DNA from: a virus
Taxonomy: Duplodnaviria; Caudoviricetes
Reading direction: 5' to 3' (one strand)
IMG/VR virus record: IMGVR_UViG_3300023174_000221
Location: 1-53,458 of that record
DNA length: 53,458 nt
A program made the position numbers and the translations under genes. The notes under the pieces are model-generated. The model made no database searches. It worked only from the letters and a program-made list of their open reading frames with translations, and had not been told where the DNA came from. Positions 28,002 to 53,458 of this stretch are shown here, in pieces (within the stretch, counting starts at the first letter, position 1; each line of letters starts with the position of its first letter).

Positions 28002-28037
28002 ATTGAAATATTATATTATAATTATACTAAAAGGCAA
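27995..28037. promoter_or_regulatory. Overlapping divergent sigma70-type promoters
   Basis: Plus strand: TTGCCA(27995)-N16-TATAAT(28017). Minus strand: TTGCCT(28037)-N16-TATAAT(28015). Confidence 0.5.
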
Positions 28038-28040
28038 TAC

Positions 28041-30846: not shown

Positions 30847-31416
30847 ATGAAAACAAACAAAAAAATACACAAGCTAATTGGTTTGATCGCAGTGCTTGCA
30901 GTATCTACTGCACCTCTATGTTGCAACGATCATACCCTTAAAAAGGAAAAAAATATCAAGGATTTAAAAGCTGATCTTACAACTACACGCCCCACAGAAG
31001 AAAAGCAGATAGCCAAAAACATTGCCATTAAGAATGATGGTATCAAGTATAACGAAACATTTATACCTAAGACTAATGATAGTGGATTCCGCGTTTTAAC
31101 TGTTAGACTCACTGTATATTGGGCTAAAGGTGGAGATACAGATGCAGATAGTAGAAGACTACGTAGCTCTACTGGATATACTCTCAAACAAGGGGATTCT
31201 ATTGCTGTAGACCCAAGAATTATACCCTACGAGAAAGAAGTAATCATACCTAATATTGGTCTTGTAAGAGCTGTTGATACTGGTACAGCAGTACGCGAGA
31301 AGACAGCTTCTAACGGTAAACTACCAGTAATTGATGTCTTTTTTACATACAAAAAAGATGCTATAGCATTTGCTAATGCATATCCGAAGATAGTCAAAGT
31401 AGCCGTTTTAAACTAA
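30847..31416 (+). CDS. 3D-domain (MltA-like) lytic transglycosylase with N-terminal signal/anchor
   Basis: Basic-hydrophobic N-terminus; LTVYW, IAVDPRIIPY, AVDTGTAV and IDVFF give the three Asp residues. Confidence 0.85.
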   Translation: MKTNKKIHKLIGLIAVLAVSTAPLCCNDHTLKKEKNIKDLKADLTTTRPTEEKQIAKNIAIKNDGIKYNETFIPKTNDSGFRVLTVRLTVYWAKGGDTDADSRRLRSSTGYTLKQGDSIAVDPRIIPYEKEVIIPNIGLVRAVDTGTAVREKTASNGKLPVIDVFFTYKKDAIAFANAYPKIVKVAVLN

Positions 31417-35975: not shown

Positions 35976-38231
35976 ATGAGCACGCAAATTTTAGTTAAAA
36001 AAAGAGGTGGGGATTTAGAAAAATTTAATATAGATAAGATCCACAAAGTCATCTCTTGGGCAATTGAAGGCTTTGACGGAGTAAGTTTATCTGATATTGA
36101 GATAAACGCTAAATTAAACATGGTTGAAAATATTACAACCAGAGAAATTCATCAGAGTATTATTGAGGCAGCAGCAAATTTAATTTCAATTGAGAATCCA
36201 AACTATCAACATGTTGCAGGTCGCCTGTTAAACTATCAATTGCGCAAGGATGTGTGGGGTGGTAAACATCCACCGCGCCTAATTGACATGGTTAAAAACG
36301 GAATTCAAAAAAAGATTTATGACGCCACGCTTTTAGAGCAATACTCTGATGATGAACTCAATAAGCTTGGGGAATTTATTGACCATGAGAGAGATTTTTT
36401 ATTCACATACGCAGGCATAAAGCAGCTTTGTGACAAATATCTAATCAAAAATCGCATCAGCGGCATCATTTATGAGACGCCACAGTTTGCTTATATTTTG
36501 ATTGCCGCATATGCCTTTGCCAACTATTCCAAGGACATCAGATTGAATTATGTTAGACGCTTTTATGATGCCATTTCAAAGCATAAGATCAATCTACCCA
36601 CACCCATCATGGCTGGGGTACGTACACTGTCTCGTGGTTATGCTAGCTGCTGTTTGATTGGTGTTGATGATACCAAAGAGTCTATCACTGCTTCAGGTAC
36701 TGCTGTGTCACTTGCTACTGCTAGTCGTTGCGGCATTGGGATTGATGTGTCCAGAATACGTGCAATTGGTGCTGCAGTAAATGGTGGGTCTGTTGTACAC
36801 ACAGGAGTTATTCCGTTTCTGAAAATATATGAAGCATCTGTAAAAGCATGGCAACAAAATTCAATTCGTGGTGGTTCGGCCACAGTCAATGTTCAATGGT
36901 GGCATTATGAGATAGAAGATATTGTTGTTCTTAAAAACAATGCAGGGACCGATGATAATAGAGTGAGAAAACTTGATTATACTGTGGGTATGTCGAAGCT
37001 ATTCTATGATAGAGTACTAAAAAATGAGAACATTACATTATTTTCACCTCATGAAGTCCCGCAGCTGTGGGAAGCTTGGGGCACATCAAGATTTGACAAA
37101 ATGTATGAGGAGTGCGAAGGTGACAGGAAGATTAAATTTAAGAAGAAAATTTCTGCTCGAAAGTTATTCTCCCTCATTGTAAAAGAGCGCGTGGAGACAG
37201 GTCGAATCTATATTCTCAATGTGGACAGTGCTAATGAGCACGGTGCTTGGCTTGACCAGGTTACAATGTCAAATCTTTGCACAGAAATCATACACCCCTA
37301 CATACCACTGAAAGATTTCCACGACCCAGAAGCTGAGATTGGCATGTGCATTCTCTCTGCTGTCAACATGCTTGAGGTGAAGAATTGGTCCGATCTTGAA
37401 AAAGTATGTGACCTCATCGTTAGATTTTTGGATGAAATTGTAGACATTCAAGACTACTTCAACAAAGCAGCAGAAAATTTTGCTAAAAAACGTAGAAGCT
37501 TGGGTATCGGCATCACCAACCTCGCTGCATTCCTGGCCAAGCACGAATTGAGTTATTCTTCTCCAAAGACACTTCCTGTTGTTGATGAATGGATGGAGCA
37601 CTTTCAATACTATCTCCTCAAATCAAGTGTTCAGCTGGCCAAAGAAAAAGGAAAGTGTGAAAAATTTAACAGAACAAAATATTCCAAAGGGATACTTCCA
37701 ATTGACACATACAAAAAGAAAGTCAATGAGCTTGTGAAGCGTAAATTATCACTAGATTGGGAAGCACTACGCGAAGAAATTAAGGAGCACGGCATGAGAC
37801 ACAGCACAATGTCTGCAATTATGCCTTGTGAATCGAGTTCTGTGATACAAAACTCTACAAATGGTGTTGAACCAATCAGATCCCTCATAACCTACAAGAT
37901 GTCCAAAATGGGTAAGCTGCCAGTTCTTGTGCCTGGCATTGGCAAGTATCATGAAAATTATGAACTCGCTTTTAATCTTGCCGATAATACAGGGTTAATC
38001 AATGTCAATGCAGTGTTGCAGAAGTATATCGACATGGCGATTTCAACGAACATATATTACAATTACAATCATTACCCCAACCATGTTCTACCTGATGCCA
38101 AGGTAATGAAAGAACTCATGTATGCTTACAGCACAGGTTTAATTAGTTTGTATTACAATAATACCGATGATGGTGATAAGGAACAGTCTATGAAAGAAGA
38201 TTCATGTAGCAGTGGAGCCTGCAAGCTGTAA
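35976..38231 (+). CDS. nrdA: Ribonucleotide reductase class Ia alpha subunit
   Basis: ATP cone VKKRGG..E.FNIDKI, LPTPIMAG, ASCCL, SNLCTEI, SLYY and C-terminal CSSGACKL. Confidence 0.97.
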   Translation: MSTQILVKKRGGDLEKFNIDKIHKVISWAIEGFDGVSLSDIEINAKLNMVENITTREIHQSIIEAAANLISIENPNYQHVAGRLLNYQLRKDVWGGKHPPRLIDMVKNGIQKKIYDATLLEQYSDDELNKLGEFIDHERDFLFTYAGIKQLCDKYLIKNRISGIIYETPQFAYILIAAYAFANYSKDIRLNYVRRFYDAISKHKINLPTPIMAGVRTLSRGYASCCLIGVDDTKESITASGTAVSLATASRCGIGIDVSRIRAIGAAVNGGSVVHTGVIPFLKIYEASVKAWQQNSIRGGSATVNVQWWHYEIEDIVVLKNNAGTDDNRVRKLDYTVGMSKLFYDRVLKNENITLFSPHEVPQLWEAWGTSRFDKMYEECEGDRKIKFKKKISARKLFSLIVKERVETGRIYILNVDSANEHGAWLDQVTMSNLCTEIIHPYIPLKDFHDPEAEIGMCILSAVNMLEVKNWSDLEKVCDLIVRFLDEIVDIQDYFNKAAENFAKKRRSLGIGITNLAAFLAKHELSYSSPKTLPVVDEWMEHFQYYLLKSSVQLAKEKGKCEKFNRTKYSKGILPIDTYKKKVNELVKRKLSLDWEALREEIKEHGMRHSTMSAIMPCESSSVIQNSTNGVEPIRSLITYKMSKMGKLPVLVPGIGKYHENYELAFNLADNTGLINVNAVLQKYIDMAISTNIYYNYNHYPNHVLPDAKVMKELMYAYSTGLISLYYNNTDDGDKEQSMKEDSCSSGACKL

Positions 38232-38251: not shown

Positions 38252-39316
38252 ATGAAGTCTGTTTTAAATATAAAGAATATTGATCATACCAAACAACCAT
38301 TGTTTTTTGGTGAAGATTTAAATTTGCAGCGTTATGATAAGTTCAAGTACCCTGTGTTTTTCGAGTTATTCAAAAAACAGGAAGAGTTCTTCTGGTGGCC
38401 CCATGAAATATCTCTGCAAAAAGATAGGCACGATTATCGTGGGTTAAAAGGTGAAGAACGGTTTGTGTTTGATAATAATTTAAAATTTCAAACTCTAGGA
38501 GACAGCATGCTGTCTCGTTCAATCCATTCTCTCAAGGACTATGTCTCTAATCCAGAACTGGAAATATGCATGAATACATGGCAGCGGTTTGAAGGCATTC
38601 ACAGCTACAGCTATTCTTATCTTCTTAACAATGTGCACCCACATGCTTCAGCATTTTTTGATAGCATCATGGAAGATGAAGAAATTGTTAGCAGGGCCAA
38701 TCTCATTCGCAATAACTTCGATAAAATCTTAGGTGATGATTCCAAGAAAGATATTAAAGAGAAAATCTTAGATTGTGTGTTAGCTGTCAATGTCATGGAG
38801 GGCCTAGTATTCTATGTCAGCTTTGCATGTTCCTTTTATTTTGGATACCGTGGAAAAATGGAAGGCAATGCAAAAATTATTAAATTTATTCAGCGTGATG
38901 AATCTCAACATTATGCAATTACTCAGAATCTTTTAAAGATCATGCGCGATGAGGACTGTGAGGGCTTCACACAAGTGGTAAAAAAGAATGAAGATAAGAT
39001 ATATGCTTATTATGAGCAAGCTGCCAAGAATGAGATCGAGTGGGCACAGTATCTCTTTAGCAAAGGTTCTCTGCTGGGATTAAATGCTGAGGTACTTGGT
39101 GGTTACACCAAGTGGCTGTGTGATAATCGGTTGCGCTCCCTAGGTTATAAAAAGATCTTTAATCAAAAAGGTAATCCCATATCTGGCTGGCTAGATAGTT
39201 ACTTGGATAGTAGCAAGGTACAAGTTGCGCCACAAGAAGCTGAAATAGGTGCATACAAGATAGCCGCCAGAGACACGACAATCTCAGAAGAATCATTTGC
39301 TGACATCAAATTGTAA
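38252..39316 (+). CDS. nrdB: Ribonucleotide reductase class Ia beta subunit
   Basis: FFWWP.EI, FQTLGDS, EGIHSYSY (radical Tyr), MEGLVFYVSF, RDESQH and QVAPQE.E...Y. Confidence 0.97.
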   Translation: MKSVLNIKNIDHTKQPLFFGEDLNLQRYDKFKYPVFFELFKKQEEFFWWPHEISLQKDRHDYRGLKGEERFVFDNNLKFQTLGDSMLSRSIHSLKDYVSNPELEICMNTWQRFEGIHSYSYSYLLNNVHPHASAFFDSIMEDEEIVSRANLIRNNFDKILGDDSKKDIKEKILDCVLAVNVMEGLVFYVSFACSFYFGYRGKMEGNAKIIKFIQRDESQHYAITQNLLKIMRDEDCEGFTQVVKKNEDKIYAYYEQAAKNEIEWAQYLFSKGSLLGLNAEVLGGYTKWLCDNRLRSLGYKKIFNQKGNPISGWLDSYLDSSKVQVAPQEAEIGAYKIAARDTTISEESFADIKL

Positions 39317-40632: not shown

Positions 40633-40830
40633 ATGGTCAGCGCAGAAGTGCCATCACTTTCTACTACCGATCTCTACAGGTATTTTACAGCAATGAGAGA
40701 AGAGATTTTGAAACACAAGTGGTATGAAAGCGAGAGAGCTGGCAAGGATGTGGGGTTTGAATACGCGCTAGTTAACTGGACAATGAGATTTCGCAATGCT
40801 TGGCAACCCAAAACTAAGGCCCCTTCTTAG
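40633..40830 (+). CDS. Small DUF4032-like protein
   Basis: LYR.F.A.REEILKHKWYESERAGKDVGFE.AL..W...R..W; TAAATA-N5-ATG. Confidence 0.75.
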   Translation: MVSAEVPSLSTTDLYRYFTAMREEILKHKWYESERAGKDVGFEYALVNWTMRFRNAWQPKTKAPS

Positions 40831-43132
40831 CATTATTTTGTGATGTTGCCACGTTACGCTCCACCCCGTTAGTGCCAGCAGCAGCATCTCTTACATCAGA
40901 ATTGCTTGCAACAAGCGTTAAGGGTAGATTGCGGAAATGATGACTGTGTGGATATGTAAACAAGCAATTGGGTGAAGGTCTGCCGTTTCCACTTGGTGTG
41001 CGTGCATATACACGAAGCCAATTGCCACATGAATCACTCACATAGTCGCCCGGGCATGCGGTCACATATCCAATCACTGGATATTCAGAAAGTGAAAACA
41101 CCTCATCATTAGTTTGACCATATATCTTGGTGTCTTCGGTTTCCTGAATCTCAACTGGAGCAGTAATATGATTAATGGTGAGTTCACCTTCTATATGTGC
41201 CCCGCCGCCAACAATTAGATTTCTACTAACACCCAGACTGCTGTCCACCAGCACTTGTTTCATTTGTCTCTGCTTAAACACCATTATATCTGCTGTTACA
41301 GTCAAGCGCTTGCCACCATCAATATTAGTTTCACTGCTACTGGCTAAATTCATTTGCTCACCGCTCATGTTAATAACTGTTCCACCAATCTGTACAGGTC
41401 CAAAGGACTTCATGCTTATGCCACCTGCTCCAACTTGCACAGTATATCTATTGCATACATTTAGTGTATAGTTACCACCAGGAAGATCATCCACATGAAC
41501 ATATTCAATAAGAGGGCTAGCTTCTTGGTTTTCAAATACACCAAGGGTACCAATTGTAACAGCAGAATTATAAATTTTTCCCTGACTATCAACACGAATA
41601 CTACCAAAATCATTCATTATTGTTCCAATAGTCTCAATCTTATGCTTGGTGATATCCACAATCTCATGTCCGCCAAGACCTAAATCTGCTTCTGCTTTGG
41701 CTATACTAGATATCTTTGAATTGAGCAATGCCTGCAATTGCTGCTTCGCAGGATCAGGCGACCATTCACCGCCCATGCTACTAACACTCTTGCCTGTGCC
41801 ACCACAACTTGGACATTTTCCTGTGGGTGGAAAGGTCAGATCCTGAGGCTTACCAGGTTGCTGCAGTCCAATTGCATCCACAGTATCATACAGACTCACA
41901 CCGTCTCTGGCTTGATAACCGCCACCACCTGCAGTAATACTTGGAATTCCAACAGCCGCAAAAGGATTGTTTTTGAGCGTACTATATTTTCTATTCTGCT
42001 GGCACACAGGGCACTTACCGTAACTACCTGATTGCTTTTGTTCTACACTATTAAATAACTCTTTATTCTTTACTCGCTGTGTTTCAAATCGCTGTTTAAC
42101 ATCAGCTACTCCTTGCATGATGTCTTTCCACTTCTGAACAGCACCAGAATCAAGACTACCAATTTTGCGATACACATCTCCACGAATTGTTATATCTTTG
42201 TCACCATCCACATAGAAGTTATCTGATCCTCTCACTGTTTCAAACTTATCTCCCTGTATCAAATGCTGTTCATTTGCTGTGGCTAAGTATATTGTTGTTG
42301 GATTGGTAAAAATAATGGAACTGCCACTGTAGTGACTAAGTTTCAAAGCCTCTTTGTTATCTGTGTTTGTAAATTCTAACGTTCCACCCTTCTGATTAAT
42401 GAGATATTTGTTGCGATATATCTCCACATTATGATCTGTTTCGCCACCAGGCTTTTTGTTTTCATAAGAATCTGGATAATCTGTAAACTCATACACACCT
42501 TGCCACTCTTCTGCACCATGACTAGCAGCAAAGTAAATTGGATACATAGGATTACCATCAGTAAAGAACACCCACAAATGTGACCCTACAGGTGGTATTG
42601 AGAAAGATCCTTTTGCTTTATTACTATAGGAAGCTGGGCGATAGCTCTGACCATATACATTAGCTTTATTTGTACCGGAGGCGCCTGACGATACAAATGC
42701 ATCTTTTAAAGCAAAATCCCCTTTCTCGAGAATATTAGCCGGCTTTTCACCTGTACCATCAGGGTTTTGACTATATTTGGTTGGTTGAAAATTATCCTTA
42801 GGCACAGAAGAATCATAGTCATTGCTATCACTAATTGTAGATTTGCGATTGGAACTATTATACCTGCCTGAAGAAACCTCGCCTGCTAGGGGCGAAGCAC
42901 AGTCTGCCCATGGTAGAACATCCTTCAATTCATCCACAACATCATCTATTGGACTATCTATATTCTTACCTAAAAATTTAAATTTCTTATCTTTAAATGT
43001 GGCATTCCAATTTTTATATACACTGGGTGACAAATGTGGTATAAAGATCTTTACACGCCCTTTCTTTAGCGGATCATTATTCGCTACAACTATGCCAAGG
43101 TAATTTCCGTAAAGTTTGTTTTGATCTGTCAT
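40814..43132 (-). CDS. Baseplate central spike, T4 gp5/VgrG-like (no recognisable lysozyme domain)
   Basis: OB-fold Y.GIVV.NNDP.K.GRVK, PWA and PPVGS..WVFF..G.P.YP; beta-helix repeats (IQGDKFETVRGSDNFYVDGD); C-terminal HSHH. Confidence 0.8.
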   Translation of the reverse strand: MTDQNKLYGNYLGIVVANNDPLKKGRVKIFIPHLSPSVYKNWNATFKDKKFKFLGKNIDSPIDDVVDELKDVLPWADCASPLAGEVSSGRYNSSNRKSTISDSNDYDSSVPKDNFQPTKYSQNPDGTGEKPANILEKGDFALKDAFVSSGASGTNKANVYGQSYRPASYSNKAKGSFSIPPVGSHLWVFFTDGNPMYPIYFAASHGAEEWQGVYEFTDYPDSYENKKPGGETDHNVEIYRNKYLINQKGGTLEFTNTDNKEALKLSHYSGSSIIFTNPTTIYLATANEQHLIQGDKFETVRGSDNFYVDGDKDITIRGDVYRKIGSLDSGAVQKWKDIMQGVADVKQRFETQRVKNKELFNSVEQKQSGSYGKCPVCQQNRKYSTLKNNPFAAVGIPSITAGGGGYQARDGVSLYDTVDAIGLQQPGKPQDLTFPPTGKCPSCGGTGKSVSSMGGEWSPDPAKQQLQALLNSKISSIAKAEADLGLGGHEIVDITKHKIETIGTIMNDFGSIRVDSQGKIYNSAVTIGTLGVFENQEASPLIEYVHVDDLPGGNYTLNVCNRYTVQVGAGGISMKSFGPVQIGGTVINMSGEQMNLASSSETNIDGGKRLTVTADIMVFKQRQMKQVLVDSSLGVSRNLIVGGGAHIEGELTINHITAPVEIQETEDTKIYGQTNDEVFSLSEYPVIGYVTACPGDYVSDSCGNWLRVYARTPSGNGRPSPNCLFTYPHSHHFRNLPLTLVASNSDVRDAAAGTNGVERNVATSQNNAKKGP

Positions 43133-44205
43133 GCTATACCATATAGTGGGGGAGTATTTTTAGCGTATTTATACTTGCTTGTTGGAGGATAAACTCTTAC
43201 TGTTACTTCCGATTTTAGTCTGTCTGCTGCAGCAAGAGCAGCTTCTTTCTTTTCATAATACACATCAATAATTGGTCGCCGGCCACCACTTGCCGTTCTG
43301 GCCTTGACTGCACCACCAGTGTCTGTTGCAAATCTAGTTCCAACGCCAGGTATATCGATTCGACTCAAGTAAGGTATAATATTTGGATCAACAGCAACAC
43401 TCACACCTTCTGCTAATTGACGTCCTGTTGAACTACGCTTTGCAGCGGAATCGGCATCAGTACCAGATCCTTGTGACCAATATACAGTCAGCCGCACAGC
43501 AAGATCGAACCCATTTTTGTTATCACCACTAAATTTTGGTGAACTAAGTTGCTGCAACGGAGCTTGACCTGTTTGACCAAATACAGGGTTATTTGCTTCA
43601 CTTGAAGCCATTTGCGTAGATATTTTTGAAACGTTCTGTGTTGAATTATTCACTGCGCCACCAACAGCTTGATTGAATTTATCTGGATACTTCAAATCTC
43701 TGATGCCTTTTGGTGTAAGATTTGAAGCTTTATCTATGCCACTTTGCACAGCTTGACTAATATTACCAAATTGACTGCCTTGCGATTCATTCTGAAATAC
43801 ACCCAGCATCTGTTGTGCAGATTGAGTGGAAAAACTATCTGCTGCTTTCTGCAATTGTGATGTCAGGCTTTGAAAACCACCACCTGATACAAGGTTATTA
43901 ACACCGGGAAAAGATTTACCAGCCAGCGCCTCTAGCTGCGATGTGGCTTGATCTGTGATTGACGGCAATACATTATTTAACCCTTTTGTCAATTGATTTT
44001 TAAACCCTGTAGGATTCAGCAGACTGCGCACCCCATCTGGTGCTGTATTGATAAAATTACCTGGCAATAGACCTGCCGCTTGATCGCTAAACTGATCAAA
44101 CCCTGGGATGGATACTAAACTCTGCAGATCTTGCTGTGTGATACCGTTGAGCTTATCTTCTAAAGTCTGCACCGAATTTACTATATCTGGAGCGTTGTAA
44201 TACAC
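43129..44205 (-). CDS. Virion-associated protein with C-terminal 3D lytic transglycosylase domain
   Basis: Q/S/G-rich N-terminal region; LTVYW, VAVDPNIIPY, ATDTGGAV and IDVYY. ATGA-coupled to the gp5-like gene. Confidence 0.8.
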   Translation of the reverse strand: MYYNAPDIVNSVQTLEDKLNGITQQDLQSLVSIPGFDQFSDQAAGLLPGNFINTAPDGVRSLLNPTGFKNQLTKGLNNVLPSITDQATSQLEALAGKSFPGVNNLVSGGGFQSLTSQLQKAADSFSTQSAQQMLGVFQNESQGSQFGNISQAVQSGIDKASNLTPKGIRDLKYPDKFNQAVGGAVNNSTQNVSKISTQMASSEANNPVFGQTGQAPLQQLSSPKFSGDNKNGFDLAVRLTVYWSQGSGTDADSAAKRSSTGRQLAEGVSVAVDPNIIPYLSRIDIPGVGTRFATDTGGAVKARTASGGRRPIIDVYYEKKEAALAAADRLKSEVTVRVYPPTSKYKYAKNTPPLYGIA

Positions 44206-44226: not shown

Positions 44227-44254
44227 TTGATTTGAAAGGGGGTTATTATATCAT
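44227..44254 (+). promoter_or_regulatory. sigma70-type promoter TTGATT-N16-TATCAT of the deazaguanine operon
   Basis: ATG 44262 is 7 nt downstream. Confidence 0.65.
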
Positions 44255-44261
44255 AAACTGT

Positions 44262-45068
44262 ATGAAGGTATCACATGAGTCTCCCATTTCTATCTTAGAC
44301 TCATCCAGAAAATACAACGATTTTGACTACTGTCTGGTACATCTTCTGGATCAATACCCTACATATAATGATTTCTTTAAATTTGCCAGAATTACTTACA
44401 ATAGAGAAGTATTACTTGACAATTCTATTTTTGAACTGGGCAAAGCTTTTGATAGTCACAAGTTCTGGGTAAAGGTTAAAGAAATTAAACCCAACATGTT
44501 TATTGTACCGGATGTACTTGAAGATACTCAAGATACAATACAAAGCTTTAAAGCATTTGAAAATTACACACTTAATATTAAGGAGAGCTTTTTAACAAAA
44601 GCTATAGGCGCTGTGCAGGGTAAAAATTGGCATGAATTAAAGGAGTGTTACAAATTTATGTCTGACAACGCAGATATGATTGCAATAAGTTTTGATTTTA
44701 GTTATTATCAAGCTATCGGTGAAGGTAAAACCTATCTTGAAAAGTGGTGCACTGGTCGCCAGCGCTTTATAACCGATTTAATAAGTAATGGGATATGGAA
44801 TTGGAGCAAACCTCATCATTTACTTGGTTGTTCTTTGGCTAAGGAGTTTAGATTTTATGTTGATAGAAATATTCACAATATTGTTAGTTGCGATACCAGC
44901 AATCCCGTTGTTGCTGCTATACATGGATTAAAATACGATGCGGATTACGGCTTACAAAGCAAGCCGAATACTAAGTTAGCAGATCTAATAGAGTATGAAT
45001 TTACTAACGATCAACTAGATCTTGTGGATTATAATACTTCTATGTTTAAGAAAATCATACGCAGATGA
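44262..45068 (+). CDS. dpdA: TGT-fold 7-deazaguanine insertion/synthesis enzyme (DpdA family, possibly DpdA3-like)
   Basis: LLDNSIFE (cf. TGT/DpdA DSGxF), PDVL, AVQG, HLLG and SCDTS motifs in TGT order; same operon as queF. Confidence 0.65.
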   Translation: MKVSHESPISILDSSRKYNDFDYCLVHLLDQYPTYNDFFKFARITYNREVLLDNSIFELGKAFDSHKFWVKVKEIKPNMFIVPDVLEDTQDTIQSFKAFENYTLNIKESFLTKAIGAVQGKNWHELKECYKFMSDNADMIAISFDFSYYQAIGEGKTYLEKWCTGRQRFITDLISNGIWNWSKPHHLLGCSLAKEFRFYVDRNIHNIVSCDTSNPVVAAIHGLKYDADYGLQSKPNTKLADLIEYEFTNDQLDLVDYNTSMFKKIIRR

Positions 45069-45640
45069 GACCTTGGATTACTTTTTTTTCGCAAACAGGA
45101 ACTGAAATACATAACCTATCCAATGGACTGGGTATATATCCAGATTTGATAGTAACAAATAAATCAGATTTAAAGGGTATTAATGAGGGATTACTACACA
45201 CAACACAATTTAGGGAACAAAAACTGAATAAAACTATCTTAACATTTCTGCCAAGTAAACCCGTTACTGGTAACTACATAAAGATTTTAAACAATTTTAA
45301 AAACCCTCTGATAACACTGCATGGTTATCTGAGAATTATTCCAAAAGAAATATGTGAACGATATGAAATATACAATCTGCATCCAGGTCTAATCAACAAA
45401 TATCCCAGCTTAAAAGGGTTCAATCCACAGGAACGTGCATTTACAAGTGGCCACAAGGATGCAGGGTGTGTTATACATAAAGTAACCCCAGGCGTTGACG
45501 AAGGAGAGATTGTTGCTTCAGGTGAAATTAGTATTGAGGATCTTACCCTAGCAGAAGTATACACCGAGCTTCATGGTTGTGCATTTAATGTGTGGAAAAA
45601 CTTCCTAACAGAGTATAATATAATTCAAAGTGAATCCTGA
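45065..45640 (+). CDS. PurN-like N10-formyl-THF formyltransferase (DpdN-like preQ1 formyltransferase)
   Basis: FSQTGT, LHGYLRII, YNLHPGL and GCVIHKV..GVDEG.IV motifs. Confidence 0.85.
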   Translation: MRPWITFFSQTGTEIHNLSNGLGIYPDLIVTNKSDLKGINEGLLHTTQFREQKLNKTILTFLPSKPVTGNYIKILNNFKNPLITLHGYLRIIPKEICERYEIYNLHPGLINKYPSLKGFNPQERAFTSGHKDAGCVIHKVTPGVDEGEIVASGEISIEDLTLAEVYTELHGCAFNVWKNFLTEYNIIQSES

Positions 45641-45977
45641 AGAACTCATCAAGCTAGTTGAAGCCACGTATCCTGAAACGTGCAGAGAATTTAAGAAAAT
45701 TCAGAGTGAACAATACAATACTTTCTGTAAAAAACAAAATGATTACGGGCCGCACAATATTAGCCTAGGATCTGACCTACATAGAGAAGAGGATATTGTT
45801 GCATCCATTTCTGCTATCGTAGTGCGACTCAATGATAAGATTCAGAGATTAATCAACATGGTATTGAGAAAGAAGACGTTTGAAACGGCCAATGAACCTA
45901 TTTTTGATGCTTTTAGCGACACTGCAGTGTACTGTATTATTGCCGAAATAGTCAAGAGAAAGAAATGGTGCAAATGA
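45630..45977 (+). CDS. DUF1599 / nucleotide-modification-associated domain 1 (all-alpha, MazG-like)
   Basis: KKQNDYG..NI, VRLNDK..RL.N and E...D.F.D..VY.II. Confidence 0.8.
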   Translation: MNPEELIKLVEATYPETCREFKKIQSEQYNTFCKKQNDYGPHNISLGSDLHREEDIVASISAIVVRLNDKIQRLINMVLRKKTFETANEPIFDAFSDTAVYCIIAEIVKRKKWCK

Positions 45978-46117
45978 AGCAACTCCGCACCAAGCATACC
46001 TGGGTAGATGATGACAATCATCCGCTCAAGGGATATCCTATTGATGAGCTAGACTTTATCGAAGAGACCTGGCTACAGATTATCAAGAGAAAAATTAGTG
46101 AGATTTTTAGAAAATAG
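45974..46117 (+). CDS. Small hypothetical protein (47 aa), not in ORF track
   Basis: MKQLRTKHTWVDDDNHPLKGYPIDELDFIEETWLQIIKRKISEIFRK; ATGA overlap; fills the gap in the operon. Confidence 0.55.
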   Translation: MKQLRTKHTWVDDDNHPLKGYPIDELDFIEETWLQIIKRKISEIFRK

Positions 46118-46118
46118 C

Positions 46119-46146
46119 TTTACTTCTTTAATTTGTCCAGTATAAT
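46119..46146 (+). promoter_or_regulatory. sigma70-type promoter TTTACT-N16-TATAAT
   Basis: ATG 6 nt downstream. Confidence 0.55.
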
Positions 46147-46152
46147 TGTGTT

Positions 46153-46731
46153 ATGATTTTTACTTTTACAGGTCCTCAGTGTTCGGGTAAGACTACTCTT
46201 TTAAAGAAGTGCAAGGAGTATTATGGTTCTAAGCTATGCTATATTGATGAAGTAACTAGGCTAATTAAACGTTGGCATAATTGTGATATAAATGAAGAAG
46301 GTGCTAATGATGTAACGCAGACATTAATTTTAAATAAAGAGTTTGAGAATTTATTTTACAATTATAAAGGATTTAATTTTCAAGGCATATTGCATGATCG
46401 CTGCTTGATGGATGGAATGGTTTATACAAGTTATTTTGCCGGTAGTAGACTAAATGATTTTCCTGTATCTAATAGTTTAGGTTTGTTATACTATACAAAT
46501 TATATTAAAAAGTATGATCATATCTTTTATCCGAGTCCTCATGATGTTCCGCTGGTTGATGATGGTGAGAGAAGTATTAATAAAGAATTTAGAGATGCAA
46601 TTATTGATAAATATGAGAATTTTTGGTTGTCAGATGAAAGGTTAAAAGGAAAGGTAACTATTTTAAAAGGAACAGTGGAAGAACGCATGGAAGCAATTAA
46701 AATAAAACTTAATGAATACGGAATTAGATAA
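46153..46731 (+). CDS. P-loop nucleoside/nucleotide kinase (AAA_28 / dNMP-kinase-like)
   Basis: GPQCSGKTT Walker A, DRCLMD, and YD.IFY....LVDDGER. Confidence 0.8.
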   Translation: MIFTFTGPQCSGKTTLLKKCKEYYGSKLCYIDEVTRLIKRWHNCDINEEGANDVTQTLILNKEFENLFYNYKGFNFQGILHDRCLMDGMVYTSYFAGSRLNDFPVSNSLGLLYYTNYIKKYDHIFYPSPHDVPLVDDGERSINKEFRDAIIDKYENFWLSDERLKGKVTILKGTVEERMEAIKIKLNEYGIR

Positions 46732-47632
46732 TAGTAATATATCAAAGCATCTTGGTAAAATAACCGGGTATAAGTGCACCTATGACCCCTCACTCTTAGT
46801 TCGTGAGCCTAGAGCTAATAACAGGAAGCATCTAGGTATTAGTGATGAGAATCCTCCTTTTTGTGGTTATGATGTTTGGAATGCTTACGAGGTATCATGC
46901 CTAACAAGTGAGGGGATGCCAATTGCGGCTATAGCCAAAGTTGTCTACCCTGCTACAAACAAATATATTGTTGAGTCCAAGTCCATCAAGCTCTACATGA
47001 ATTCGTTCAATATGGAGAAATATCAAGGCAATATTATTAATATATTACAACAGCTTGAGGCCGTGATGGAGAATGATCTTTCTAAATTGCTTGAAACAGA
47101 TGTTAAGGTATGTGTCAGGCTTACAAAAGCAATTGACGATGCCATGCATTACCCGCCCCTATTTCCTACCGCGCTATATCCCACGCTTGAAAATAATATT
47201 GATGTAACGACTATTAAGTCCCGCGGCTACAAAGAGGATCCTAAGCTACTTGGCTGGTTGGAAGGTGACTCGAATAAAGTACAGCGCTTTCATTCAGCGC
47301 TATTAAAGAGTAATTGCAGGGTCACATCTCAACCGGATTGGGGGGATGTTTATATTCATTACAAAGGACCTTACGAACTCAATCAAACCTCTTTATTGCA
47401 GTACATTGTTTCGTTCAGAGATGAATGTCACTTCCATGAGGAGATTTGCGAGACAATTTATAAGCGGCTGTATGATCTGGTCAAGCCAAAAGAATTGATG
47501 GTATCGTGTCTGTATGTGAGACGCGGTGGCATTGATATTAACCCTATCAGAGCCAATAGCCCAGAACTCTTGAAGCAGAACGGTGCCATGTGGGATAAGT
47601 GGAAGTATTTTACTAAGACTGTTAGGCAGTAA
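46712..47632 (+). CDS. queF: NADPH-dependent 7-cyano-7-deazaguanine (preQ0) reductase, bimodular type
   Basis: YDPSLL, D.WNAYE.S.L, ESKSIKLYMNS QueF motif, catalytic SNC..T.QPDWG, FHEE.CE and RRGGIDINP.R. Confidence 0.95.
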   Translation: MNTELDNSNISKHLGKITGYKCTYDPSLLVREPRANNRKHLGISDENPPFCGYDVWNAYEVSCLTSEGMPIAAIAKVVYPATNKYIVESKSIKLYMNSFNMEKYQGNIINILQQLEAVMENDLSKLLETDVKVCVRLTKAIDDAMHYPPLFPTALYPTLENNIDVTTIKSRGYKEDPKLLGWLEGDSNKVQRFHSALLKSNCRVTSQPDWGDVYIHYKGPYELNQTSLLQYIVSFRDECHFHEEICETIYKRLYDLVKPKELMVSCLYVRRGGIDINPIRANSPELLKQNGAMWDKWKYFTKTVRQ

Positions 47633-48064: not shown

Positions 48065-51000
48065 GTGAATCTATACAATGTGCTTCTAAACAATAGAATT
48101 CCTTTTGTTTTGCATGAAAGCAGTGATTCAGAGAATGTTATATATTGTAAGTCATTTTCTGATTATCTGTTCAATGTGGGTACGTTTACCACCAGAACCA
48201 AAGAAGTTATACTTGAATATGTTGTAGATAATGCTGAAAAATATGTAGTTGCTGATGTAACTTTTGACAATGGTGAGTGTTACAAGGATGTAAGATTCAA
48301 AGTGGTTGTTAATGAAAATACTGAAACACCATACTCCACCATCAACTTAAATCTTCTTAGCAACAAGACACAGGTAGCTGCACCCCAACAATCACAGCAA
48401 ATAGTTGAAGATGTTGAGGAGATAGTTGAAGAGCCCGTATCTACTCATATATCAGCTCCCATTATTGAAACTCCAGATTATACGGAAACCATTAATGAGA
48501 CTTTAAAACTACAAAAGAAACTTAATGTAGAGAAAGAAGAAATTAGAAAACAGAAAATTATTCTAGAAAAACAAGATCTTTTAAATAAAAAATTACAAGA
48601 ATATAAGCAAGAACTATTAGAAGAATATGTAACTGCTGTTGATAAGCAAAAGCAGCTGCTTGGTGCACATTTAAAGGAAACCTTGACAATAGCCGAACAC
48701 GATCTTAGTGAACGCATAACCAACACATTTAATGAATATAGCAATCAACTAGAAACTTATCAAAACAAGTCTAAAGTAGATCAACTTGAATTTATTATTG
48801 AAAAAATTAACGATTCTATTGTTGATATTAAAGTTGATCTGAACAGCTTGGTATCAAATAAATTTAATCAAGAGCAAGACATCTTACTAGAAGCGCTACA
48901 TGCAAAGTCTCAACTGTTACAAGAAAAATATGAGCAAAAATTATTATTGGAGCTTGAGAAATACAAAGAAACATTATTTGAAGAATTTCGCTTGTCATCA
49001 CAAGAAGCTATATTACAAACTCTAGCTCAAAAGAAAGATTTAACTGAACAGCAAATTATTATAGCTTTTGATAATAAAGAAAAAGAATTTAATTCGCACT
49101 TTGAAACAAGACTTAAAAATACTACCTTGGAGCTGGACAGCATTGTACAAGAATTTTCAAATAAGCTTCCAGCCATCAGCGATGATATGTCTTTATTGGA
49201 AGCCAAGCTTAAAGACCTACTGGAAGAAAGAAAGAAATCTGATGAAACAGGTAAGTTTAATACCTCGCAGCAGAAATATATTGCTGATACCGCACAATAT
49301 TGGGCTCGACGCATACTAGATTTGGGTGGTGGTGGAGGATCTGTTGCAGTTCAATATGCCAATGGTGGTACTATGAATGGTAATTTGAATGTAAATGGTA
49401 GCTACTTGTCTGGTGGTGTTGATTTGTTAAATATATTTAGCGGTGGCGGTCTGACGGATAGATTAATCAATGGTTCTTATCAAGTGGTACTGAGTAGCAA
49501 CAGTACGCTAATTTTCCCTGGCAGCGGTACCTTAACAGATACCGCTTCAGTTGCTCAAGTAGGTTTTGAAATTAACGGTTTATTTAATTATGCAGGGCAA
49601 ACTTCAGTTGGTCTTAATACTTTTAATGCAGGATTAGGCAACCCTGCCTGGGGACCAGCAATCCAGGCAAACCCCACAGACTATGAAATTGTATTCAATG
49701 GTGGTTTGGTCGCCACTATTGCCAGTGCGGCAGGCACAGCTTCTCCTGGGGCACGATGGGATTTTACAGGCTCTTGGCCTGCAAATCCCACTGGAGCTCC
49801 AGTCACCATTCGTGCAAAAAATTATACCCCTGGTGTGCAAGGAACAGATGGCATAAGACTTGCCTCAAATAATAATTCTTGGACATTTGGCACAGATGGC
49901 AATCTAACATTTCCAACTGGTAGTAAAATATCCAAAGGCTATCCAGGACAGACTCAAGATGGCAGCAGTTGGTTTGTAGCACCTGCAGGGGATTGGGGAG
50001 GACTTGCCAGCGCAGATGGTGAACAGTATGTACAGATAGGCAATAACAGTCCTATCCTTATTGGTACAAATTGGCCGGATAGTGCTCATGAATGGACATT
50101 TGGCACAGATGGTACCACATTATTTCCAAATCAGGCCATTGATGGCGGCACAGCACCAATTGAATTAAAGAGTCGTAGTTGGAGTCAACTGACATATAAC
50201 AATAACGATATGACCCCAGCACCCAACAAAAATCACAGCACTACATTTTTTGTAGAAGGTGGTGATGCGTTGTTGGAAATATTCCGTTGGGATAATGATG
50301 GTGTTCTGCAGCATCGTCAATGGACATTCTCAAGTGATGGTAGTTTAACATTCCCAGACAACACCATACAAGCAACAGCATTCACAGGCATACCGGCTAA
50401 CATTGCTTATACCAACCAAGACACTATATTTGAAAAAAATGTAACCATACAAGGCAATCTAACAGCATTAGGTACCAGCACATTTCAGAATACTATCTTC
50501 ACAACCACCAGTGCGTTGAGTGTTTATAATACAGGACCAGGACCTGCGTTATATGTATTTCAGGCTGCTGGTCCCTATGATGTAGCCAGCTTTTATGATG
50601 GTGACGGTGTCGAGGTATTGCATGTGGGCAATGCACAGGGTGGAGGCAATCCCTTAGGTCAAGTAGGTATAAACACAAGCTTCCCATCAGCTGAATTAAC
50701 TGTAAATGGTGCCATTAGTAGTAATGGTAATATAAAAGCTGGTGGGCAATTTTCATTCCAGAATGGTGATTATGTCTCATCAACTGATGGGACTGGTAAT
50801 TTTGTAGACTTAAGGAATGCTAATTACTATCAACTTAATTTTGTTAATACAGGTGTAAATGGCGCAGGTGATTGGCATGTGGGTAATTATCTTCCATTTG
50901 GAGCGTTCGGTTGGTATAATACTTATTTAGGTAGAAGCATGATGGATTTAATAGATGGCACCCAGGGAGGTCATGACAAGGGTGTGTATTTTTATGATAA

Positions 51001-53458
51001 TGTTAGTATTGGTGCAGGTTCGCTCACAGTTGATGGTGCCATTAATAGCAATAGTACAATTGCCGCTGAAGGTGGCAACAGCAATAATTGGAATAGTAAT
51101 TATACCACTACACAATCAAACAGTGCCAATTGGATATTGGATGGTGGCAATGCCAAGGGTGCAAATTTGACAATCGGGACTAATGATAATAATAGCTTAA
51201 TACTTAAAGCTAGTAACATACCTCTTGTTAATATTACACCAGAAAACAATGTAGGCATAGGGTATACAAGCAGCTCCCCTGCAGTTAATCTTGTGGGATA
51301 TAATTTTAATAATGCAAGAAGCACAATCACCACCACAGTTAGCGTTTATTCACAGTACCCAGGTGTGAGTGCAGGTAGCATGGATGCTGCAACTGGTATA
51401 GCGGGAGTAGCTAATTATACTCTGGGTTGGGGCACCTCATCTTACTCACCTGCTGCTACAACCCCTGCTTTGGCCATAGCTGCAAATGAATATATAAGAA
51501 TTCCTATATATCCTCTGGCTAGCGGTGATTATAATATCGCTATAAATGGTGTATCTGCTCCTTTCTTCGTTAATAGATCTGCTAGTGGTGCACAAAGATT
51601 TGCTTTATTATACAGCACTCTGCCCACACCAGTGTCTTACACAACAATCCTAGATACTGCTATACCTGCTACTGCAACCGACCTAGCGCCAGCGATCAAT
51701 GCTGTATTAAATGCATCCAACATTACAATTACATCTGCTACAACAGGATATTTTTATCTAGTACCCTACAATGCAACATCAACTGGGGGTCAATTTCGCT
51801 TACCAAACACCAGTGCAGTTAGTCGAGACATTCAGTTTACAGGGTATGTGGAAATACCTGAACCTGTTATTCCTAGTGAGAGGCTCACTGTTGTTGGCAA
51901 TATAAGCAGCAGCAATATTGTTTATGGTTCCAGATTATCAGTCAGCGGTCCATTTGCAAATGGTGCTGTGTATGTTGCAAATTCGAACTTACAAATTGGA
52001 ACTAATGATGCATTTAATTTAAATTTAGAAACAAATAATACCAACAGAATTACTATATTGAGTTCAGGTGAAATAACTTTAAACCCAGTAACTATCACAC
52101 CTGCATTGAGCTCCATGCAAAATGTTCTGAATGTGAGAGGCACAGCAGTGGTATGCAGCGACATATCCACCCTTATTAGCACACCAGCACTGGACCCATC
52201 CAGTCCAGGTCAATTCTCTGCAGGAGGCATGCTCATGGGTCAAAATGAAGGAGGTGCATACATGGGCCGGATAGGAGTAAGAGAGAGCAGCTGGCAGGTG
52301 ATATCAGGCACAGAAGGAACAAATTGGGTTGATAGAACAGGATCAGGCAGTAGAAATTGGATCAGTGTGGCCATGTCTTCTGATGGTAGAATACAGACGG
52401 CTGTTGCAGGTTATGGCTTTATCTACACATCTTATGATTATGGTGTGACCTGGACTGAAAGAACAGGAGCAGGCGGTAACAATTGGTTTAGAGTGGCCAT
52501 GTCTTCGGATGGCAGAATACAGACGGCTGTTGCAGGACCAGCTGACTTCATCTACACATCTTATGATTATGGTGCAACCTGGACTGCAAGGACACAAGCA
52601 GGCAGCAGACCGTGGATTAATGTGGCTATGTCTTCTGATGGCGAAATACAGACCGCTGTCACAAATGGAGGCTTTATATACACATCTTATGATTATGGTG
52701 TGACCTGGACGGAAAGAACAGGGGCAGGCAGTAAAAATTGGTTTGGAGTGGCCATGTCTTCAGATGGCAGAATACAGACAGCTGCAGGACCCACACCAGG
52801 CAACATCTACACCTCTTATGATTATGGTGCAACCTGGATTGTTAGAGATACCAGCAGACCGTGGTACCATATAGCCATGTCTTCAGATGGCAGAATACAA
52901 ACAGCTGTTACGACAGGTTACATATATAGTTCTTATGATTATGGTGCAACCTGGACTGCAAGGACACAAGCAGGCAGCAGAGTATGGTCCGCAGTGGCCA
53001 TGTCTTCAGATGGCAGAGTACAAACAGCTGCTGAAGGAGGAGGTTACATATACACTTCCTATGATTATGGCATAACGTGGTTTATAGGAACATCAAATTT
53101 TATTAGTTGCAAAGATGTGGCCATGTCTTCTGATGGCAGAATACAGACAGCTGCCGGTACGTCGGGGTCTTATATTCGCACCTCTTATGCAACCATAGTA
53201 ACACCTGGTCCTGTTACAGTATTAAACTCTATTAGTTCTACTGGGGCAATATATGCATTAAACGGAAACAGCAACAATTGGTCTAGTGTTTACAATTCTT
53301 ATAACAGCATTAGTAGCAGATACACTACATTAGATTACCTGTCCTCTAATTTTATACGTCTTGGTGGGTTGTATGCAGGTCCTAATCCTGGCAGCATAAC
53401 TGCTACAACGCCTGTATCTGCTATGTATGGCATATATGTTGAACCAGTATCTGGGTAT
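48065..53458 (+). CDS. Giant fibre/virion protein (>1798 aa), 3'-truncated; not in ORF track
   Basis: TAAATA-acat-GTG start. Frame is open wherever checked through to the window end, and the track lists no stop-terminated ORF in this frame. Architecture: E/K/Q coiled coil, LGGGGGSVAVQYANGG hinge, fibre modules, 7-repeat propeller. Confidence 0.85.
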   Translation, partial: MNLYNVLLNNRIPFVLHESSDSENVIYCKSFSDYLFNVGTFTTRTKEVILEYVVDNAEKYVVADVTFDNGECYKDVRFKVVVNENTETPYSTINLNLLSNKTQVAAPQQSQQIVEDVEEIVEEPVSTHISAPIIETPDYTETINETLKLQKKLNVEKEEIRKQKIILEKQDLLNKKLQEYKQELLEEYVTAVDKQKQLLGAHLKETLTIAEHDLSERITNTFNEYSNQLETYQNKSKVDQLEFIIEKINDSIVDIKVDLNSLVSNKFNQEQDILLEALHAKSQLLQEKYEQKLLLELEKYKETLFEEFRLSSQEAILQTLAQKKDLTEQQIIIAFDNKEKEFNSHFETRLKNTTLELDSIVQEFSNKLPAISDDMSLLEAKLKDLLEERKKSDETGKFNTSQQKYIADTAQYWARRILDLGGGGGSVAVQYANGGTMNGNLNVNGSYLSGGVDLLNIFSGGGLTDRLINGSYQVVLSSNSTLIFPGSGTLTDTASVAQVGFEINGLFNYAGQTSVGLNTFNAGLGNPAWGPAIQANPTDYEIVFNGGLVATIASAAGTASPGARWDFTGSWPANPTGAPVTIRAKNYTPGVQGTDGIRLASNNNSWTFGTDGNLTFPTGSKISKGYPGQTQDGSSWFVAPAGDWGGLASADGEQYVQIGNNSPILIGTNWPDSAHEWTFGTDGTTLFPNQAIDGGTAPIELKSRSWSQLTYNNNDMTPAPNKNHSTTFFVEGGDALLEIFRWDNDGVLQHRQWTFSSDGSLTFPDNTIQATAFTGIPANIAYTNQDTIFEKNVTIQGNLTALGTSTFQNTIFTTTSALSVYNTGPGPALYVFQAAGPYDVASFYDGDGVEVLHVGNAQGGGNPLGQVGINTSFPSAELTVNGAISSNGNIKAGGQFSFQNGDYVSSTDGTGNFVDLRNANYYQLNFVNTGVNGAGDWHVGNYLPFGAFGWYNTYLGRSMMDLIDGTQGGHDKGVYFYDNVSIGAGSLTVDGAINSNSTIAAEGGNSNNWNSNYTTTQSNSANWILDGGNAKGANLTIGTNDNNSLILKASNIPLVNITPENNVGIGYTSSSPAVNLVGYNFNNARSTITTTVSVYSQYPGVSAGSMDAATGIAGVANYTLGWGTSSYSPAATTPALAIAANEYIRIPIYPLASGDYNIAINGVSAPFFVNRSASGAQRFALLYSTLPTPVSYTTILDTAIPATATDLAPAINAVLNASNITITSATTGYFYLVPYNATSTGGQFRLPNTSAVSRDIQFTGYVEIPEPVIPSERLTVVGNISSSNIVYGSRLSVSGPFANGAVYVANSNLQIGTNDAFNLNLETNNTNRITILSSGEITLNPVTITPALSSMQNVLNVRGTAVVCSDISTLISTPALDPSSPGQFSAGGMLMGQNEGGAYMGRIGVRESSWQVISGTEGTNWVDRTGSGSRNWISVAMSSDGRIQTAVAGYGFIYTSYDYGVTWTERTGAGGNNWFRVAMSSDGRIQTAVAGPADFIYTSYDYGATWTARTQAGSRPWINVAMSSDGEIQTAVTNGGFIYTSYDYGVTWTERTGAGSKNWFGVAMSSDGRIQTAAGPTPGNIYTSYDYGATWIVRDTSRPWYHIAMSSDGRIQTAVTTGYIYSSYDYGATWTARTQAGSRVWSAVAMSSDGRVQTAAEGGGYIYTSYDYGITWFIGTSNFISCKDVAMSSDGRIQTAAGTSGSYIRTSYATIVTPGPVTVLNSISSTGAIYALNGNSNNWSSVYNSYNSISSRYTTLDYLSSNFIRLGGLYAGPNPGSITATTPVSAMYGIYVEPVSGY
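49880..50358 (+). repeat. Three WTF(G/S)(T/S)DGxxxFP fibre motifs
   Basis: At 49880, 50093 and 50321; the first two share TGGACATTTGGCACAGATGG. Confidence 0.7.
52367..53190 (+). repeat. Seven tandem 123-129-bp coding repeats (VAMSSDGRIQTA...IYTSYDYGxTW), Asp-box beta-propeller
   Basis: Units start at 52367, 52493, 52622, 52748, 52871, 52994 and 53117, with near-identical GC(C/T)ATGTCTTCNGATGG and TATGATTATGG. Confidence 0.9.

Follow-up and report, generated by a model that had tools for sequence, protein, structure and literature searches.

In Flavobacterium phage immuto_2-6A, all G in the DNA is replaced by formylated dPreQ1 (fdPreQ1), as described in the paper that defines the DpdA3 subfamily of 7-deazaguanine transglycosylases and predicts the formyltransferase DpdN (Cui et al., 2023; PMC10516641). 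Campylobacter Firehammervirus CP220 carries dADG in place of all G, with a pathway stated to stop at CDG (PMC10516641), and the DNA of Cellulophaga phage phiST, where 7-deazaguanine is the product, contains dDG at all G positions. Phages with DpdA3 replace 100% of G, compared with at most 30% for the other DpdA groups (PMC10516641). Here, we analysed a stretch of 53,458 bases that constitutes the entire IMG/VR viral record IMGVR_UViG_3300023174_000221 (hereafter, the window) and represents about 25% of the genome according to a completeness estimate. A six-gene operon at 44262–47632 (+) adds, judged by its sequence, a further representative to the fdPreQ1 system that Cui et al. described (2023; PMC10516641). 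Taking the two points jointly, we are highly confident that the operon encodes the late half of a 7-deazaguanine DNA replacement pathway, with virion DNA predicted to contain fdPreQ1 instead of G, and that the fragment derives from a large T4-like phage of roughly 200 kb.

The original prediction had described closely spaced or overlapping genes, and all six open reading frames (ORFs) were recovered on the + strand, encoding proteins of 268, 191, 115, 50, 192, and 306 aa, with overlaps at four of the five junctions and a sole gap at 46118–46152. A nucleotide search with the operon (blastn) gave no match among 50,697 phage records, and relatives were detectable only at the protein level. A consensus scan for promoters and terminators remained at chance level, with 22 promoter-like sites vs. 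18.6 expected; within the region, TTTACT-16-TATAAT (10/12) at 46119–46146 (+) resembled a sigma-70 promoter most closely and was located in the sole gap of the operon, before the kinase gene.

Gene 1 (44262–45068, +; 268 aa) encodes the DpdA3-type 7-deazaguanine transglycosylase. A longer frame with a TTG start opens at 44232, and homologues begin at the ATG at 44262. The protein had no significant match in Pfam (only DUF6610, E 0.0045, under the cut-off) and matched phrog_19058 (3.9e-57). A tblastn search of the 50,697 phage records returned 18 records, namely 14 CP220-like Campylobacter phages and four Flavobacterium immuto phages, at 43–45% identity with at least 95% of the protein aligned, including the 'DNA guanine transglycosylase' of immuto_2-6A, annotated as DpdA (44.9%), and CP220 gp056 (44.7%). 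The DpdA3 of phiST (CGPG_00065) was found with a family profile of gene 1 (8.9e-14). An AlphaFold2 model built from 21 relatives (pLDDT 91.4, pTM 0.88) was searched against the PDB with Foldseek, and all 50 listed top matches were tRNA-guanine transglycosylases (TGT; best E 6.7e-9, with TMq about 0.68; TMq range 0.61–0.70). The DpdA3 sequence profile matched no solved TGT or DpdA among PDB sequences; the fold search alone succeeded. The TGT/DpdA fold proposed for this gene was thereby upheld, both by the structural matches to TGT only and by the kinship to the DpdA3 proteins of immuto, CP220, and phiST. On its sequence and modelled fold, gene 1 belongs to the DpdA3 subfamily, and insertion of a 7-deazaguanine into DNA is predicted, as it is in print for all DpdA3 proteins (PMC10516641).

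Residues D53, F57, D84, Q119, and D211 were invariant in 21 DpdA3 sequences. The spacing of D53, D84, and D211 is compatible with that of the active-site Asp residues of TGT and DpdA, and the mapping of residues is putative. DpdA has three active-site Asp residues, acting as acid/base, in base recognition, and as nucleophile (D95/F99, D130, and D256; PMC10164549). The window protein resembles bacterial DpdA and TGT in its TIM barrel and, on this putative mapping, in the three invariant Asp residues and the Phe four residues past the first Asp. It differs in being approximately 100 residues shorter, in having no Zn-binding Cys/His tail (the sequence contains no Cys after residue 211), and in having no sequence-level match to solved members. 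DpdA3 proteins had a median isoelectric point of 5.76 and neither a Zn nor a C-terminal domain. Four longer or fused DpdA3 forms were found: two metagenomic fusions to a bimodular QueF (P0001, 566 aa; P0002, 531 aa), one protein with a NUMOD3 homing-endonuclease tail, and one with an uncharacterised N-terminus; a kinase fusion was not among these four.

Gene 2 (45065–45640, +; 191 aa) encodes a DpdN-type PurN paralogue, a predicted (d)preQ1 formyltransferase. It matched Formyl_trans_N (PF00551) at 1.6e-17 and 64.2 bits (cut-off 26.1). In the phage tblastn search it matched the four immuto records, with 47.8% identity to YP_010114479, the DpdN of Cui et al. (E 1e-47, 94% coverage); all other phage matches had E-values of 3e-10 or weaker and partial coverage. 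Its position between DpdA3 and QueF fits the DpdA/QueF-linked group of formyltransferases, unlike the other phage groups. Residues N104, H106, and D145 were invariant in 17 DpdN sequences and aligned with the NxH...D signature (NIHPSL...D) of solved PurN/glycinamide ribonucleotide (GAR) transformylases, in which we take the Asn, His, and Asp to be catalytic. The N-terminal FSQTGTE aligned with ISGTGSN of human GART, a loop that presumably holds the phosphate of GAR. The protein is PurN-sized and has no polynucleotide-binding extension. By homology, gene 2 is the orthologue of DpdN, and formyltransferase activity is predicted for it.

Gene 6 (46712–47632, +; 306 aa) encodes a bimodular QueF, the predicted NADPH-dependent reductase of preQ0 to preQ1. 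Both QueF domains were detected in Pfam (QueF_N, 7.9e-34; QueF, 3e-23), and identity to the immuto QueF was 46%; the TIGR03138 score of 261 bits was under the equivalog cut-off of 293. In the alignment to Vibrio cholerae QueF (3bp1, 5.7e-48), the LLKSNC..TxQPDWG stretch was matched, which we take to be the catalytic Cys stretch. The QueF assignment of the original prediction was consequently retained. Since gene order and homologues match those of immuto, DNA containing fdPreQ1 is the natural prediction for this phage, so that the earlier proposal of formyl-preQ1 DNA follows from homology and synteny. The link drawn there, between DpdN and formylated preQ1 replacing G in a Flavobacterium myophage, matches the report on immuto_2-6A (PMC10516641).

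Gene 5 (46153–46731, +; 192 aa) encodes a P-loop small-molecule kinase with the fold shared by deoxynucleoside kinases (dNK), thymidylate kinases (TMPK), and the ribosylnicotinamide kinase of NadR (NadR-RNK). It matched AAA_28 (1.6e-12, 48.4 bits vs. a cut-off of 27) and phrog_2107 (2.3e-21). Its AlphaFold2 model (pLDDT 89.7) had deoxyadenosine/deoxyguanosine kinases, thymidylate kinases, and NadR ribosylnicotinamide kinase as top Foldseek matches (from E 1.7e-6), and its profile matched TMPK 2pbr (5.4e-5) and NadR 6gye (7e-5) end to end. In the Walker A motif, G12, K13, and T15 were invariant, and DRC and DDGxRS-type motifs aligned with the substrate and lid regions of dNK/TMPK/NadR-RNK. Gene 5 is therefore a member of the nucleoside/nucleotide kinase family, and its neighbourhood suggests a deazaguanine nucleoside or nucleotide as substrate. 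The search for longer or fused kinase forms found none, which is weak evidence. Complex prediction of DpdA3 with the kinase scored 0.00 in two runs without controls and speaks neither for nor against binding.

The association of this kinase with DpdA3 was assessed by tblastn in 49 IMG/VR loci with a gene 1 relative (56–91% identity); these related loci are not independent samples. The kinase followed DpdA3 in 46 of the 49, and the three misses (L013, L048, and L049) are contigs ending before the kinase. QueF was present in 45, with four misses on cut contigs. DpdN was present in 37; two of the misses are cut contigs, and the remaining ten loci run from DpdA3 directly to the kinase and QueF, with DpdA3 and kinase genes abutting or overlapping. 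In the DpdA3 tree, the DpdN-less loci formed one clade (nine rows, support 96/96). A search starting from the kinase returned at least 534 IMG/VR stretches with a kinase relative; 77 new loci were kept, many of them sharing contigs with the first set, and DpdA3 was found in 60 of the 61 that reach far enough upstream, the one miss (L108) being cut. Among the cultured phages (50,697 records), the kinase had 21 matches, comprising the 18 records with DpdA3, two records of another contig of IBB_35, and Firehammervirus CC_R7. DpdA3 thus forms a package with a kinase of the dNK/TMPK fold in all 46 informative loci, in immuto, and in CP220, an observation that is new here.

Several insertions were observed among the related loci. 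A GMP reductase-like gene was present in 20 of the 49 (e.g., L002:9375–10334; NF003966, 4.1e-100, just under the cut-off), in 19 cases between DpdN and the DUF1599-like gene and in L028 upstream; it is absent from the window operon though the nearest relative, L002, has one. A HIT protein was inserted in two loci, and L045 contains a LOG/PpnN-like protein together with a dATP/dGTP diphosphohydrolase. A radical-SAM/SPASM protein (439 aa) lies between kinase and QueF in L007 (11440–12759), and also in L070 and L084–L086.

The constant adjacency of gene 5 to DpdA3 could also be explained if gene 5 hydrolysed ATP to assist transglycosylation of DNA, standing in for DpdB, and were not a pathway kinase. 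The partner of bacterial DpdA is the ParB-like ATPase DpdB, without which, and without ATP, bacterial DpdA is inactive (PMC10164549), and DpdA3 without a partner could not be made functional in Escherichia coli (PMC10516641); in the window, the partner of DpdA3 is a small-molecule kinase. We regard the helper role as very improbable. DpdB is a DNA-encircling NTPase (PMC10164549), whereas the 192-aa gene 5 product has the dNK/TMPK/NadR-RNK fold with kinase motifs, no further domain, and nothing of the ParB-like DpdB fold. In addition, a second kinase paralogue, located beside QueE/QueD in all five long relatives (hhalign 98.5% to the kinase family), has no DpdA next to it. This paralogue (L136:352–1098, −, equal to G001:C1:60354–61097, and also in G002–G005; AAA_28, 7.9e-15) adjoins the QueE-like gene, with QueD and FolE within approximately 3 kb.

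Gene 3 (45630–45977, +; 115 aa, GTG start) encodes a DUF1599-like small helical protein, which the original prediction had read as MazG-like. Its assignment to DUF1599 is weak: the match to the Pfam family (PF07659) had an E-value of 0.087 and 13.6 bits, under the gathering cut-off of 25, and the likeness to DUF1599 clusters in a language-model comparison (0.96, 24 of 30 matches) concerned clusters with 30–59% PF07659 members and serves as a lead only. The protein matched phrog_1485 (1.5e-13). Alignments with hhalign to MazG, PRA-PH, and dGTP_diPhyd_N proteins gave probabilities of at most 0.7% (one of 0.7%, two of 0.1%) in a test of low power (single-sequence targets, Neff 1.7), and the profile of gene 3 matched no solved structure in the PDB. 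In metagenomes, at least 7662 clusters at 90% contained relatives, and the profile search retrieved close unnamed relatives only, with no bridge to typical DUF1599 members. The closest relative in a cultured phage, at 42.6% identity over the full length, is encoded by Microcystis phage Mel-JY01 (78440–78781, H76), where DpdA3 and the kinase had no match. Of the 37 loci with DpdN, 36 also contain gene 3, and it is absent from all ten that lack DpdN. Neither L045 nor immuto has a DUF1599-like gene alongside DpdN, and in L045 the dATP/dGTP diphosphohydrolase (PF18909, 5.3e-22) stands at its place, which is a single case. Gene 4 (45965–46117, +) is a small conserved ORF; the frame predicted earlier exists, at 50 aa from the first ATG, with the predicted 47 aa corresponding to the second Met start. 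No family match was obtained in Pfam or PHROG, and tblastn recovered gene 4 in four of the 49 loci (L003, L008, L014, and L028; 45–88% identity) and in seven of the 77 loci of the second set.

The closest described system, immuto, has the order DpdA3, 50-aa ORF, DpdN, 'thymidylate kinase', and QueF, with QueD, QueE, a phosphoribosyltransferase (PRT), and FolE directly upstream. It shares with the window the arrangement DpdA3-(small ORF)-DpdN-kinase-QueF, at identities of 45%, 48%, 29%, and 46% for the four named proteins, as well as a homologous purine PRT. In contrast to immuto, the window has the DUF1599-like gene and the 50-aa ORF between DpdN and the kinase, while immuto has no DUF1599-like gene and instead, upstream of DpdA3 and separated from it by one small ORF, a PRA-PH-family (MazG-type) hydrolase; the preQ0 genes directly upstream in immuto lie 17–50 kb away in the window lineage. 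In CP220, DpdA3 (44.7%) is followed by an AAA_28 kinase of the same family (34%), among structural genes. Differently from the window, an HD+AAA_33 fusion lies upstream, giving the order HD+kinase fusion, DpdA3, kinase, and CP220 has no DpdN, no match to the window PRT, and no QueF annotated near DpdA3. The distant DpdA3 of phiST is clustered with MazG-like, FolE, QueE, and QueD genes and has an adjacent P-loop kinase-like gene (order QueD, QueE, FolE, MazG-like, a 115-aa ORF without Pfam match, AAA_18 kinase-like, DpdA3); a homologous PRT is also present. The kinase-like gene of phiST belongs to AAA_18 and not to the window family, and the annotation of the cluster includes neither QueF nor DpdN. 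Every DpdA3 lineage examined thus has a small P-loop kinase beside DpdA3, and the lineages other than that of the window have a recognisable (deoxy)nucleoside triphosphate ((d)NTP) phosphohydrolase beside it, both of which are new observations. The value of the locus is comparative, as each lineage contains a kinase and a (d)NTP phosphohydrolase candidate, represented in the window lineage by the DUF1599-like gene or by the dGTP diphosphohydrolase of L045. We found no published assignment of the kinase or of the DUF1599-like gene; the main text of PMC10516641 never says 'kinase' or 'DUF1599', and its supplement may list neighbours such as the kinase.

The original prediction had noted no genes for preQ0 synthesis in the window, and FolE, QueD, QueC, and QueE were indeed all absent from its 53,458 bases. 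Because the window stops 5.8 kb past QueF, this absence is uninformative. FolE, QueD, and QueC were found 17–50 kb past QueF in five of five long relatives (the records of L007, L002, L016, L019, and L023); a QueE-like gene was confirmed only in G001, a 217-kb genome rated 100% complete, where a QueE-like radical-SAM gene is present and the preQ0 genes lie 17–41 kb downstream of QueF.

A purine (xanthine/guanine-type) PRT at 30319–30774 (+) is a possible accessory of the pathway. It matched Pribosyltran (7e-11), and the nearest NCBIfam model was xanthine PRT (4.4e-16, under the cut-off). It shares 31% identity with the immuto PRT, which sits between QueE and FolE, and tblastn matched only 11 phage records: four immuto, five of the Cellulophaga phiST group, and two Brevundimonas. 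A role in guanine salvage or in base-to-nucleotide conversion is possible. The genes for the large and small subunits of ribonucleotide reductase, NrdA (35976–38231, +) and NrdB (38252–39316, +), lie 5 kb upstream of the operon and are conserved upstream neighbours in 29 related loci. Together with the two kinase paralogues, these enzymes could form a different route, in which the XGPRT-like enzyme makes a deazapurine ribonucleotide that two kinases and NrdAB convert to the deoxynucleoside triphosphate, leaving DpdA3 to clear residual G or to edit tRNA. The occurrence of the PRT in both immuto, inside the preQ0 cluster, and the phiST group is in line with such a route, as is the proximity of NrdA and NrdB. 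We nevertheless judge it unlikely in the extreme, because the Campylobacter phages replace all G without a PRT match, 13.5 kb separate the window PRT from the operon, and DpdA3, the one gene shared by all lineages and in some phages part of a fusion with QueF, would for that reason be the main user of preQ1.

Two opposed proposals have been published for the step at which the modified base enters DNA. Use of a modified dGTP by the polymerase is cited as having been proposed for the Campylobacter phages (Hutinet et al., 2019; PMC6884629), whereas Cui et al. (2023; PMC10516641) argued from the finding of DpdA3 that insertion must be post-replicative in every case. The pre-replicative idea is therefore not new, since it was in print by 2019 and was discarded in 2023 (PMC6884629; PMC10516641), and the present locus reopens the question between the two. 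The original prediction had placed the kinase and the DUF1599 protein at the nucleotide level; of this, the kinase gained comparative support as the constant partner of DpdA3, and the reading of DUF1599 as MazG-like was left unsupported. Gene identities, folds, and conserved neighbourhoods were established directly; the chemistry set out below, with all of its substrates and the sequence of its reactions, is deduced.

We consider the chances evenly balanced that the base exchange takes place on a free deoxyguanine nucleotide rather than in DNA. In such a route, a (d)NTP phosphohydrolase would convert dGTP to dGMP, the candidate here being the DUF1599-like protein and in relatives a MazG/PRA-PH, HD, or dGTP-diphosphohydrolase protein. 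QueF would reduce preQ0, supplied by FolE/QueD/QueE/QueC encoded beyond the fragment, to preQ1, and DpdA3 would exchange G for preQ1 on dGMP. DpdN would then formylate the aminomethyl group of the preQ1 nucleotide, the dedicated kinase would phosphorylate the formylated nucleotide, and the phage polymerase would incorporate the product; for the guanine released, the purine PRT could provide salvage and, in relatives, GMP reductase a drain. We favour the nucleotide-level route because a small-molecule kinase is always present, (d)NTP phosphohydrolases recur, DpdN has the size of PurN and retains its phosphate-loop motif, and DpdA3 is short and has no Zn subdomain; these points do not amount to proof. 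Pathways of comparable logic operate in T4, where hydroxymethyl-C is made with a dCTPase, a dCMP hydroxymethylase, and a dNMP kinase, and in Z-genome phages with MazZ, PurZ, and DatZ. In these, an NTP pyrophosphatase eliminates the competing nucleotide and thereby supplies the monophosphate, the base is altered at the monophosphate stage, and phosphorylation by a kinase brings the product back into the pool; the difference is that the central enzyme is not homologous and that the step here would be a base-exchanging transglycosylation. In its strongest form, the proposal states that DpdA3 is not a DNA enzyme and is the first TGT-superfamily transglycosylase acting on a free nucleotide, in a triad with the kinase and a (d)GTP phosphohydrolase, and that DpdN acts on a nucleotide as PurN does on GAR. 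We put this form forward tentatively, as somewhat short of an even chance. If correct, a pre-replicative triad would explain why complete G replacement is confined to DpdA3 phages, as well as the failure of DpdA3 by itself in E. coli.

The published post-replicative model offers another explanation, in which DpdA3 flips G out of newly made DNA and inserts preQ1, or fpreQ1 that DpdN has made from the free base, or in which DpdN formylates dPreQ1 within DNA. General nucleotide metabolism or guanine salvage, travelling with the module, would then be the function of the kinase, the DUF1599-like protein, the PRT, GMP reductase, and the remaining enzymes. We regard this model as possible, though on the doubtful side. 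Characterised TGT/DpdA enzymes all act on polynucleotides, bacterial DpdA swaps G in DNA (PMC10164549), and DNA-level insertion was proposed for all 7-deazaguanine DNA (Cui et al., 2023; PMC10516641); the three invariant Asp residues of DpdA3 at TGT/DpdA-like spacing are in keeping with this. The PRT and GMP reductase would suit disposal of the released guanine equally well, NrdAB 5 kb upstream identifies the surroundings as partly a nucleotide-metabolism region, and in CP220 a second kinase paralogue occurs with a dUTPase. The model, however, leaves the kinase without a function, although its gene is translationally coupled to that of DpdA3 wherever a locus is informative and in three cultured lineages, and a dATP/dGTP diphosphohydrolase, MazG, PRA-PH, or HD protein encoded in the operon would deprive the polymerase of the G that is required first. 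Further difficulties are the missing Zn and C-terminal parts of DpdA3, the absence of a polynucleotide-binding extension from DpdN, and the fact that DpdA3 alone left E. coli DNA unmodified (PMC10516641). On the side of the nucleotide-level route, detection of the ADG nucleoside in infected cells has also been reported (PMC10516641).

A number of points weigh against the nucleotide-level route. The gene order common to the four lineages may have been retained by descent, and large phages frequently carry kinases and MazG-type genes. We know of no TGT/DpdA-family enzyme that acts on mononucleotides. The DUF1599-like protein showed no similarity to MazG, PRA-PH, dGTP_diPhyd_N, or solved structures in the low-power test described above, and its gene is not a constant partner of DpdA3, being missing in the DpdN-less loci, in L045, and in immuto. 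Since the DpdN-less loci form one clade, the co-variation of DpdN with the DUF1599-like gene reflects approximately one event and is not independent evidence. The window-family kinase is absent from phiST, whose kinase-like neighbour shares the P-loop alone; Firehammervirus CC_R7 has a kinase match and no DpdA3 match, and the second paralogue of CP220 adjoins the dUTPase among replication genes. GMP reductase would deplete the GTP required for preQ0, and the activity of DpdN has itself only been predicted in print (PMC10516641).

Irrespective of mechanism, the operon adds a further, very abundant environmental member to the system published in 2023. Were the nucleotide-level route true, the TGT superfamily would gain a reaction, 7-deaza-dGTP analogues could be produced enzymatically, and full vs. 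partial modification of genomes could be predicted by a sequence-based rule.

Two 2OG-Fe(II) oxygenases (2OG-FeII_Oxy_5) are encoded at 27966–28604 (+) and 29060–29692 (+), just upstream of the purine PRT, and the window contained no tRNA genes. A giant ORF at 48065–53458 (+), encoding at least 1798 aa, runs off the end of the window; it had no PHROG match and in Pfam only a BNR-Asp-box repeat. In relatives, a T4-type capsid module (Gp23, protease, scaffold) occupies the position downstream of QueF where the window has this ORF. The protein encoded at 33115–34209 (−) carries Mtd_N, a domain of the major tropism determinant, at its N-terminus (1.3e-10) and is a possible target of a diversity-generating retroelement. 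Two proteins carry a C-terminal 3D domain of the cell-wall-lytic type (43129–44205, −, and 30847–31416, +), the former abutting a baseplate hub/tail lysozyme-like gene at 40814–43132.

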